This document shows positions 33,443 through 34,333 of a stretch of 64,000 nt of DNA, one piece after another. The DNA lies in the NCBI GenBank assembly GCA_047947115.1, contig CP170459.1:2304001-2368000 (forward strand), in the 5' to 3' direction. The stretch is from Verrucomicrobiota bacterium (GTDB lineage: Bacteria; Verrucomicrobiota; Verrucomicrobiia; Limisphaerales; AAA164-E04). Under the pieces are notes generated by a model. It was not told the origin of the DNA, made no database searches, and saw only the letters and a list, made by a program, of their open reading frames with translations. Within the stretch, counting starts at the first letter, position 1. Each line of letters opens with the position of its first letter. The position numbers and the translations under genes were made by a program.

Positions 33443-34333
33443 ATGAATCAGGGCCCAACTTTATTCTTAGGCGTACTTTGCGCCATGGCTGTTTCCTGGA
33501 TCGGCTTCGTCATGTTGCCTCAGGTCCAACTCGGCAGTCAGTCCACCCGTGTCGTCAAGGAACTTGGACGTCATTATCCGTCCCCACGCGGCGGTTTGGC
33601 TGATCGTGGCAAGGACGTTTACCGCGCCGCCGGATGTGCCTCCTGTCACACCCAGCAAATTCGTCAGACCGGTTTCGAGTTCGACATCGTCCTGACAGAT
33701 GCTGGCGACTTTACCAACTCCGTTATTGGACTGGTGCAGCAGGCTAATCGGTCCTTGAATGAAAAAGAAGCCACTGACCTGGTCGCCAAAACGCCCATCA
33801 CGATTCGTGAAGGGGTGAAAAAGGACATAGCGGATCATATCCTCAAGCTTTTCAAGGACAGTGGCGCCAAAGTCGCGGCCAACATTCGTCCAATGGGCCC
33901 CGATATCGAACGTGGCTGGGGACCTCGCCAAACAGTTGGTTTGGATTACTTGTACGATCAACCACTCCTTCTCGGCAACCAGCGTATTGGACCAGATCTG
34001 GCCAATGTCGGCTCACGCCTGACGGACCGTCAGTGGCACCTGCTGCACCTTTATCATCCACATACGGTGGCGGCTGGTTCGATCATGCCAGCCTACCCCT
34101 ATCTTTTCGAAACAAGAAAGATCGACGGTCAGCCCTCAGCGGATGCTCTTCCTCTGGAAGGTGATTTCGCTCCCGGAGAAGGGATGGAAGTGGTGCCAAA
34201 ACCAGAAGCCCACTCTCTGGTAGATTACCTGTTGAGCCTTCGAATCGAAAATCCGGTATTCGAAGCTCCCTACTTATTTACACAAGCTGAAAGCAGCGAA
34301 GACAACAATTCCGAAACGGAGCAGGCCCAATGA
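33443..34333 (+). CDS. CcoO-like monoheme cytochrome c with an inserted L7/L12-CTD-like domain
   Basis: TM helix, GKDVY..GCASCHTQQIR, LLGNQRIGPDLANVG, WHLLHLYHP, SIMPAYPYLF; about 70-aa insertion after QQIR. Confidence 0.85.
   Translation: MNQGPTLFLGVLCAMAVSWIGFVMLPQVQLGSQSTRVVKELGRHYPSPRGGLADRGKDVYRAAGCASCHTQQIRQTGFEFDIVLTDAGDFTNSVIGLVQQANRSLNEKEATDLVAKTPITIREGVKKDIADHILKLFKDSGAKVAANIRPMGPDIERGWGPRQTVGLDYLYDQPLLLGNQRIGPDLANVGSRLTDRQWHLLHLYHPHTVAAGSIMPAYPYLFETRKIDGQPSADALPLEGDFAPGEGMEVVPKPEAHSLVDYLLSLRIENPVFEAPYLFTQAESSEDNNSETEQAQ

Follow-up and report, generated by a model that had tools for sequence, protein, structure and literature searches.

The window (the whole stretch of 64,000 nucleotides analysed here) contains a ccoO-like gene (33443..34333, + strand) encoding a monoheme cytochrome c of 296 amino acids, which is split by an insert resembling ribosomal protein bL12 (L7/L12). 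This locus raises the question of how a piece of a ribosomal protein came to lie within a respiratory cytochrome, and what, if anything, it does there. Judged by its sequence, the host protein is a CcoO homologue. It scores 90.3 bits with the FixO profile, above the cut-off, the Pfam match falling in two stretches around the insert, and the model shows an N-terminal helix at residues 4-24 that is probably a membrane anchor. The heme-c attachment motif CxxCH (CASCH; 33635..33649, +) and Met215 in SIMPAY (34085..34087, +) are invariant in our alignment A1, and the SIMPAY motif is present in 69/69 insert-bearing proteins; by comparison with CcoO, we take Met215 to be the axial heme ligand. Anchor, CxxCH, GPDL motif, and axial Met are common to this protein and CcoO/FixO of P. 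stutzeri (3mk7_B) and P. aeruginosa (8smr_F), and Foldseek also matched its model to CcoO structures. The score with the equivalog model TIGR00781 was 79.5, below its cut-off of 200.65, the match being split by the insert.

A bL12 C-terminal domain within the cytochrome

A preliminary description of this DNA had reported an L12-like peptide at 33674-33883. This peptide is an exact, in-frame translation within the 296-aa open reading frame, flanked by CASCH and by GPDIERGWG. Its placement inside the ccoO-like gene stood, but its bounds had to be shifted slightly: comparison with insert-less orthologues defines a clean insertion of 73 residues, E79-M151 (33677..33895, +), at which R-P-x-G-F / G-A-D of the orthologues becomes R-Q-T-G-F / E79...M151 / G-P-D in the query. 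Residues 80-145 match positions 1-65 of the 67 in the Pfam Ribosomal_L12 profile (PF00542) with 40.1 bits (E = 4.7e-10), above the curated cut-off of 25.9 bits. When the insert alone was compared with the PDB by phmmer, it matched the E. coli L7/L12 C-terminal domain (CTD) 1ctf (E = 3.3e-8), to which bL12 domain it is 38-40% identical. Among family inserts, 22/47 matched Ribosomal_L12 individually at E ≤ 0.001, and the insert-family profile matched the E. coli CTD with E = 1.3e-15.

An AlphaFold2 model of the CcoO-like protein, built from 28 homologues, predicted the β-α-α-β-α-β fold of the bL12 CTD for the insert with a pLDDT of about 90, whereas the heme domain was poorly modelled (overall pTM 0.46). 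In Foldseek, the top structures for the insert were all bL12 (1ctf, 3j9y, 8yeq, and 1rqs), and L12 CTDs superposed at an rmsd of 1.0-1.2 Å over 69-71 columns. Two strands of the model, 77-86 and 143-151, flank the domain. The alternative that the segment is a normal CcoO loop failed: the spacing from CxxCH to D-x-x-x-GWG is 84 residues here and 11-12 residues in 27/27 loci of other orders, and the canonical CcoO of the same genome is devoid of any comparable stretch. Metatranscriptome contigs bridged both junctions in two of four runs and none skipped the insert, indicating that it is not an assembly artefact. GC content (0.51 versus 0.55) gave no foreign signal for the insert. By homology and predicted fold, the insert is a real, lineage-specific domain insertion descended from the bL12 CTD.

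Like PF00542 domains of known structure (1ctf, 8yeq), the insert matches the profile over its full length and keeps the core Phe, Leu, Gly, Pro, and Ala residues. Unlike ribosomal bL12, it has neither dimerisation domain nor hinge, and it sits inside an exported heme domain. The CcoO-like protein has no Pfam match to Ribosomal_L12_N, its TIGR00855 score is 38.7 against a cut-off of 84.4, and a normal rplL lies beside rplJ and rpoB elsewhere in the genome. On these profile matches the insert is a homologue of the bL12 CTD and yet not a ribosomal protein. Databases label some CcoO-like proteins "ribosomal protein L7/L12" (P0087, P0101) and others "cbb3 subunit II".

The host operon and its histidine-less CcoN

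The ccoO-like gene is the ninth of ten genes on the same strand: actA-actG of alternative complex III (ACIII), followed by ccoN-, ccoO-, and ccoP-like genes (products CcoN', CcoO', and CcoP' below). ActA (23648..24316, +) has five CxxCH motifs, as do its orthologues, and no sixth heme domain. Profile matches give actB (24313..27681, +) molybdopterin-like and Fe-S domains behind a TAT-variant leader, assign actC (27681..29108, +) to the NrfD family, and identify actD (29108..29647, +; Pfam ActD, 217.9 bits). Gene position supplied the names of actE (29649..30263, +), a monoheme cytochrome c by Pfam, of the actF-like membrane protein (30270..31517, +; no Pfam match), and of the small actG-like protein (31552..31938, +; no significant Pfam match), the latter two being conserved in the operon. 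The ccoN-like gene (31980..33440, +) encodes 486 aa, and the ccoP-like gene (34330..34956, +) a monoheme cytochrome c of 208 aa with one hydrophobic anchor and scores above the cut-off for Cytochrom_C and Cytochrome_CBB3. This gene order is identical in every large locus shown, with the ccoP-like gene directly after ccoO' in all of them. Heme-c domains face away from the cytoplasm, and the single anchor and heme-c motif of CcoO' point to a periplasmic location of the insert.

A 4.2-kb RNA contig covers the operon; the comparison stretch 42600-54000 was recovered in short pieces, the longest shown being 1.1 kb. The contigs are consistent with transcription of the operon, although they do not prove it, as the runs were picked by the operon itself. 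Contigs of two of the four runs end at 34955 and 34978, and one continues to 35310. A 14-bp perfect inverted repeat read from the sequence after ccoP' (34972..35003, +) is a weak candidate for the transcript end; a scan for promoters and terminators gave nothing above shuffles and did not list this repeat. Elsewhere in the window, a complex I (nuo) operon (9278-23137, −) diverges from the ACIII operon, a layout also found in L156. Downstream of ispF, a tyrosine integrase (36517-37761, +) and a Ser/Thr-kinase-like gene (40181-42202, −) may mark an island. In two RNA runs, contigs lack the 1479 bases at 49826-51306, suggesting an insertion that varies between strains and may be a mobile element.

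The preliminary description had also called the CcoN neighbour inactive, and the sequence bears this out. At the positions that we take, by mapping on the genome's own canonical CcoN, to be the six His ligands and the active-site Tyr, CcoN' has a replacement for every metal-binding His (A, S, L, P, L, and W) and for the Tyr. It nonetheless has the subunit I fold of cbb3 oxidases by Pfam and in its AlphaFold2 model (pLDDT 92.5; TM-score 0.85-0.88 and rmsd 2.2-2.5 Å to 3mk7_A), and the gene is under purifying selection (dN 0.035, dS 0.435, dN/dS about 0.08; four pooled pairs). On its metal ligands, this ACIII-linked cluster does not qualify as a cbb3 oxidase. In a non-random sample, the ACIII-linked CcoN keeps its His in 24/27 loci of other orders (first set) and in 9/100 loci of Limisphaerales.

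Several loci depart from this pattern. CcoN' of insert-bearing L109 keeps three of the six His, those of the CuB site, and no heme ligands. Other orders, too, contain a His-less CcoN' with no insert, namely in L039, L052, L055, and numerous loci of Chthoniobacterales (L260-L298). In the CcoN tree, L039 and L052 are surrounded by intact relatives, indicating that ligand loss occurred more than once. In family f115 (L080, L081, L083, L091, and L094), the ACIII-linked CcoN keeps four to six His, and in these genomes (87-96% complete) neither coxA nor a canonical ccoN was found with the queries used.

Distribution and order of events

The CcoO-like gene is present in 217 of 251 sampled genomes of Limisphaerales, a tally that includes one unpublished genome (G651), and in at least 104 of them the match runs through the insert without a break. 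Those insert-bearing relatives that have names carry the label Verrucomicrobia, and in two cases Limisphaerales; the insert is absent from all 27 CcoO' loci of other orders. When 103 genomes from other orders of the class were searched with the insert profile, 101 had a single match, with frame lengths fitting rplL, one had no match, and one had a second, partial match. The insert appears to be confined to a single verrucomicrobial order, Limisphaerales, and to about half of its genomes.

Among 127 loci scored for both traits, which combine the best hits with 80 hand-picked of 150 listed loci and are not a random sample, 69 had the insert and a His-less CcoN', 25 had no insert and a His-less CcoN', 33 had no insert and an intact CcoN', and none had the insert beside an intact CcoN'. 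In a second, partly overlapping set of 82 loci, the corresponding numbers were 34, 28, 10, and 0, with 10 unscored. L060 and L095, with no CxxCH in the best frame, and L021-L030, which are canonical ccoNO or rplL, were left out of the counts. The suspected co-occurrence thus holds in one direction: the insert always lies beside a His-less CcoN' (69/69), but 25 of the 94 His-less loci are without it.

For the order of events, we used a tree of CcoN', CcoO' (insert removed), and CcoP' from 41 of the 82 rows; the partial L013 was left out of the CcoN tree, and L083 (4/6 His) was set to "intact" by hand. Within Limisphaerales, His loss is one change (SH-aLRT 100), and the first His-less branches have no insert. 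The insert state needs eight changes, and the AU test rejects a single clade of insert bearers (p-AU 0.0015). A FastTree of all 82 rows agrees, with the backbone of the 41-row tree being poorly resolved (17 of 38 forks open). Six insert-less loci nested among insert bearers (L061, L070, L082, L062, L066, and L069) have loops of ancestral length, so that simple deletion is insufficient and recombination or tree error is needed. By contrast, in four others (L072, L076, L089, and L097) the loop is 8-9 residues long, against 11, as deletion would leave. When 47 inserts and 66 bL12 sequences were placed in a tree of 70 columns, the inserts grouped as a single clade (SH-aLRT 86, with long-branch pull possible). 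All inserts lie at one site and in one clade, suggesting a single gain. With these caveats, the trees show that His loss is older than the insert, which was likely gained once at one site and then repeatedly lost or replaced. With this history, the perfect one-way association represents one historical event, not 69.

As to the donor, mean profile scores for bL12 of the same order (55.4), of other verrucomicrobia (54.9), and of six outside bacteria (52.0) show no useful difference, and the sister of the insert clade has a support of only 42. Only two features of the insert point to a verrucomicrobial-type source: one additional residue, shared with 41 sampled verrucomicrobial bL12 sequences, and Leu at E. 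coli position 95, shared with 31; an exported L12 paralogue is a possible alternative. The locus is a clear example of a core domain of the ribosome that has entered a respiratory cytochrome, and the order of events can be read: the oxidase first lost its ligands, and the domain arrived later and lost its ribosomal face. In a literature search confined largely to the main texts of open-access papers, we found no report of an L12 insert or of a His-less CcoN.

Possible roles of the insert and its operon

Four basic residues of E. coli bL12, K65, K70, R73, and K84, were mapped on the inserts; R73 we take to be a factor-binding residue. As the preliminary description had noted for the basic face, the query keeps none of the four (T, G, Q, and T instead). 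No insert of 47 keeps three or more, whereas 65 of 66 real bL12 sequences keep all four. Hydrophobic residues, Gly, Pro, and Ala dominate the columns kept in at least half of the 47 inserts, which represent core and turn positions; the polar ones are D55, T59, T63, N64, and K116 (E. coli numbering). Across 56 non-redundant family members, pairwise identity is 0.26 in the insert against 0.62 and 0.58 in the heme parts, net charge of the insert ranges from −8 to +4, and the alignment reveals no conserved surface patch or binding face. Selection on the insert is purifying (dN/dS about 0.11, four close pairs pooled), and weaker (0.4-0.5) in two pairs, L015 with L016 and L017. The insert is shortened to 54 aa in L064, L068, and L124, doubled in L096 (152 aa) and, judged by spacing, in L265, and in L300 the L12 domain is split by about 140 further residues.

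L12-CTD modules also occur outside this family. The insert profile matches 6020 representatives at E ≤ 0.001, and most of the best 150 (P0121-P0269) are not ribosomal proteins but carry 2-8 copies of the L12 CTD in tandem, in some cases together with TIR, caspase, kinase, Hsp70, KAP NTPase, Big_5, or EF-Tu domains 2-3. By a crude rule, about 40 of the 149 best hits other than CcoO have a signal-like N-terminus. These proteins may represent an undescribed family of exported L12-CTD repeat proteins. In L301 (1448-3925, −), an OPT-family oligopeptide transporter of the same order, a weak L12-like segment lies between two OPT matches (insert profile E = 1e-5; Pfam 21.5 bits, below the cut-off). 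With the L12 CTD a frequent passenger in exported proteins, export of the fold is not unique; the unusual point is its insertion inside a heme domain.

What, then, does the insert do? We lean towards an appendage, at most a low-specificity spacer, that is folded but dispensable, sits on a stalk of two strands, and became tolerable when CcoO' had ceased to feed the hemes of CcoN. The termini of the L12 domain are adjacent and antiparallel, so that it would fit a loop on such a stalk with the heme fold undisturbed, and selection would keep the insert folded rather than preserve any particular surface. Against the appendage reading, absence of the insert beside intact CcoN (0/33 and 0/10) and its retention under purifying selection in about half of the order are patterns that a functional role also predicts, and interfaces of respiratory partners can diverge fast. 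A specific dock tethering CcoO' to aa3 oxidase, ACIII, or another acceptor in a supercomplex would explain the strict one-way association (69/69 and 34/34 scored), the long retention, and the conserved G-T-N motif (93, 68, and 77%). However, no surface or charge is conserved, the insert was repeatedly lost, doubled, shortened, or split, His-less modules without it are common and older, the association reduces to the one event described above, and CoxB is alike in length and motif in insert-bearing and insert-less genomes. We therefore regard such a dock as somewhat doubtful, and the docking domain compensating for a dead CcoN, as the preliminary description had proposed, is unproven and probably too strong a claim. 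Still less likely is a full ACIII/ghost-oxidase/aa3 supercomplex, in which the metal-free CcoN shell with its two c-type cytochromes would be the wire and the L12 arm would dock aa3; if true, the L12 CTD would be an unrecognised, repeatedly recruited extracytoplasmic adaptor.

A binding role for the insert, whether for a peptide, a small ligand, or some component of the envelope, within a wider exported L12-CTD family with a ClpS-like use of the fold, seems improbable. An N-terminal hydrophobic segment in 45 of the 149 top non-query profile hits (crude hydropathy rule; five are CcoO'), the 2-8 L12 repeats in many of them, and P0204, a predicted lipoprotein of 93 aa whose L12 CTD is of verrucomicrobial type and which has the GTN motif, would fit it, but the exported repeats read keep the bL12 basic face that the inserts have lost, P0204 is a single-member cluster, and no conserved pocket residues were seen in the inserts. 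The ClpS adaptor shares the fold class (Foldseek rmsd about 2.7-3.7 Å), but with 11-16% identity and E values no better than 0.036 it is a much poorer match than bL12, and the CcoO-like protein has no Pfam match to ClpS at E ≤ 1. The similarity to the E. coli CTD noted above might suggest that the insert still binds translation GTPases, coupling respiration to translation. This is highly implausible: the accessible text of PMC10602876 states that EF-Tu binding needs K65 and K70 and that K84 is also factor-binding, these residues are replaced, and the insert lies inside a heme-c domain, on the far side of the membrane from the cytoplasm. Chance similarity, chimeric assembly, or a decaying pseudogene can for practical purposes be dismissed, being refuted by in-frame conservation in the at least 104 genomes and contradicted by the Pfam match, the Foldseek fold, dN/dS, and the junction-bridging RNA contigs.

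The host operon, with ACIII, a ligand-less CcoN, and two c-type cytochromes, matters more than the insert. We consider it reasonably probable that CcoO' and CcoP', anchored by the CcoN shell, relay electrons from ACIII to the CuA of an aa3 oxidase. Their c hemes would take electrons from ActA/ActE and deliver them to CuA. The same genome holds a canonical fused ccoNO and an A-type oxidase. In searches covering 80 of 126 labelled genomes, an A-type coxA was found elsewhere in the genome of 42/42 insert-bearing, 18/19 insert-less His-less, and 4/9 intact-CcoN Limisphaerales, and a canonical ccoN in 23/42, 14/19, and 1/9, respectively, so that with the query used 19 of the 42 insert-bearing genomes gave none. 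CoxB has no CxxCH in 30/30 loci and ActA has five hemes; if the relay is real, it would explain how electrons pass from ACIII to an aa3 oxidase in the absence of a bridging heme on either, and would yield a testable pseudo-enzyme scaffold. However, coxA is near-universal in the order and its genomes, being kin, are not independent, making co-presence weak evidence, and coxBA also follows an intact CcoN in L304, L278, and L293, which argues against the relay. The A-type oxidase of Limisphaera is labelled caa3 in the accessible part of PMC13608581, in which case a relay there would be unneeded. In favour of the relay, coxA or coxB is found directly downstream in 13 of 80 named loci, mostly of Chthoniobacterales, plus L303 and L304. 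The CuA motif of CoxB, which usually has Glu where these proteins have Gln, reads CAQLCG in 30/30 loci (L141:9285-10070 and L311-L340). CoxC of the same genome has a His-rich loop insertion with no L12 match.

Compared with canonical CcoO/FixO, the CcoO-like protein differs in its 73-aa insertion, its membership of a divergent ACIII-linked paralogue set, and its CcoN partner lacking metal ligands. The ACIII-linked cbb3 cluster of Verrucomicrobia has the same gene order, actA-G followed by ccoN, ccoO, and ccoP, and is treated as a working cbb3 oxidase in the accessible parts of PMC8498564 and PMC6688271, citing Refojo 2010. Whereas that cluster is described as a functional oxidase, the Limisphaerales version mostly lacks the metal ligands of CcoN, and any verrucomicrobial cluster whose CcoN has no His is probably miscounted as a high-affinity oxidase. 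The accessible text of PMC8552683 states that ACIII needs an extra c heme to reach an A-type oxidase, which is the sixth heme on ActA in F. johnsoniae (ACIII-aa3) and the oxidase's own heme in R. marinus (ACIII-caa3). In both systems, this heme bridges ACIII and the A-type oxidase; here it is on neither ActA nor the oxidase, and CcoO' and CcoP' are the candidates that would supply it.
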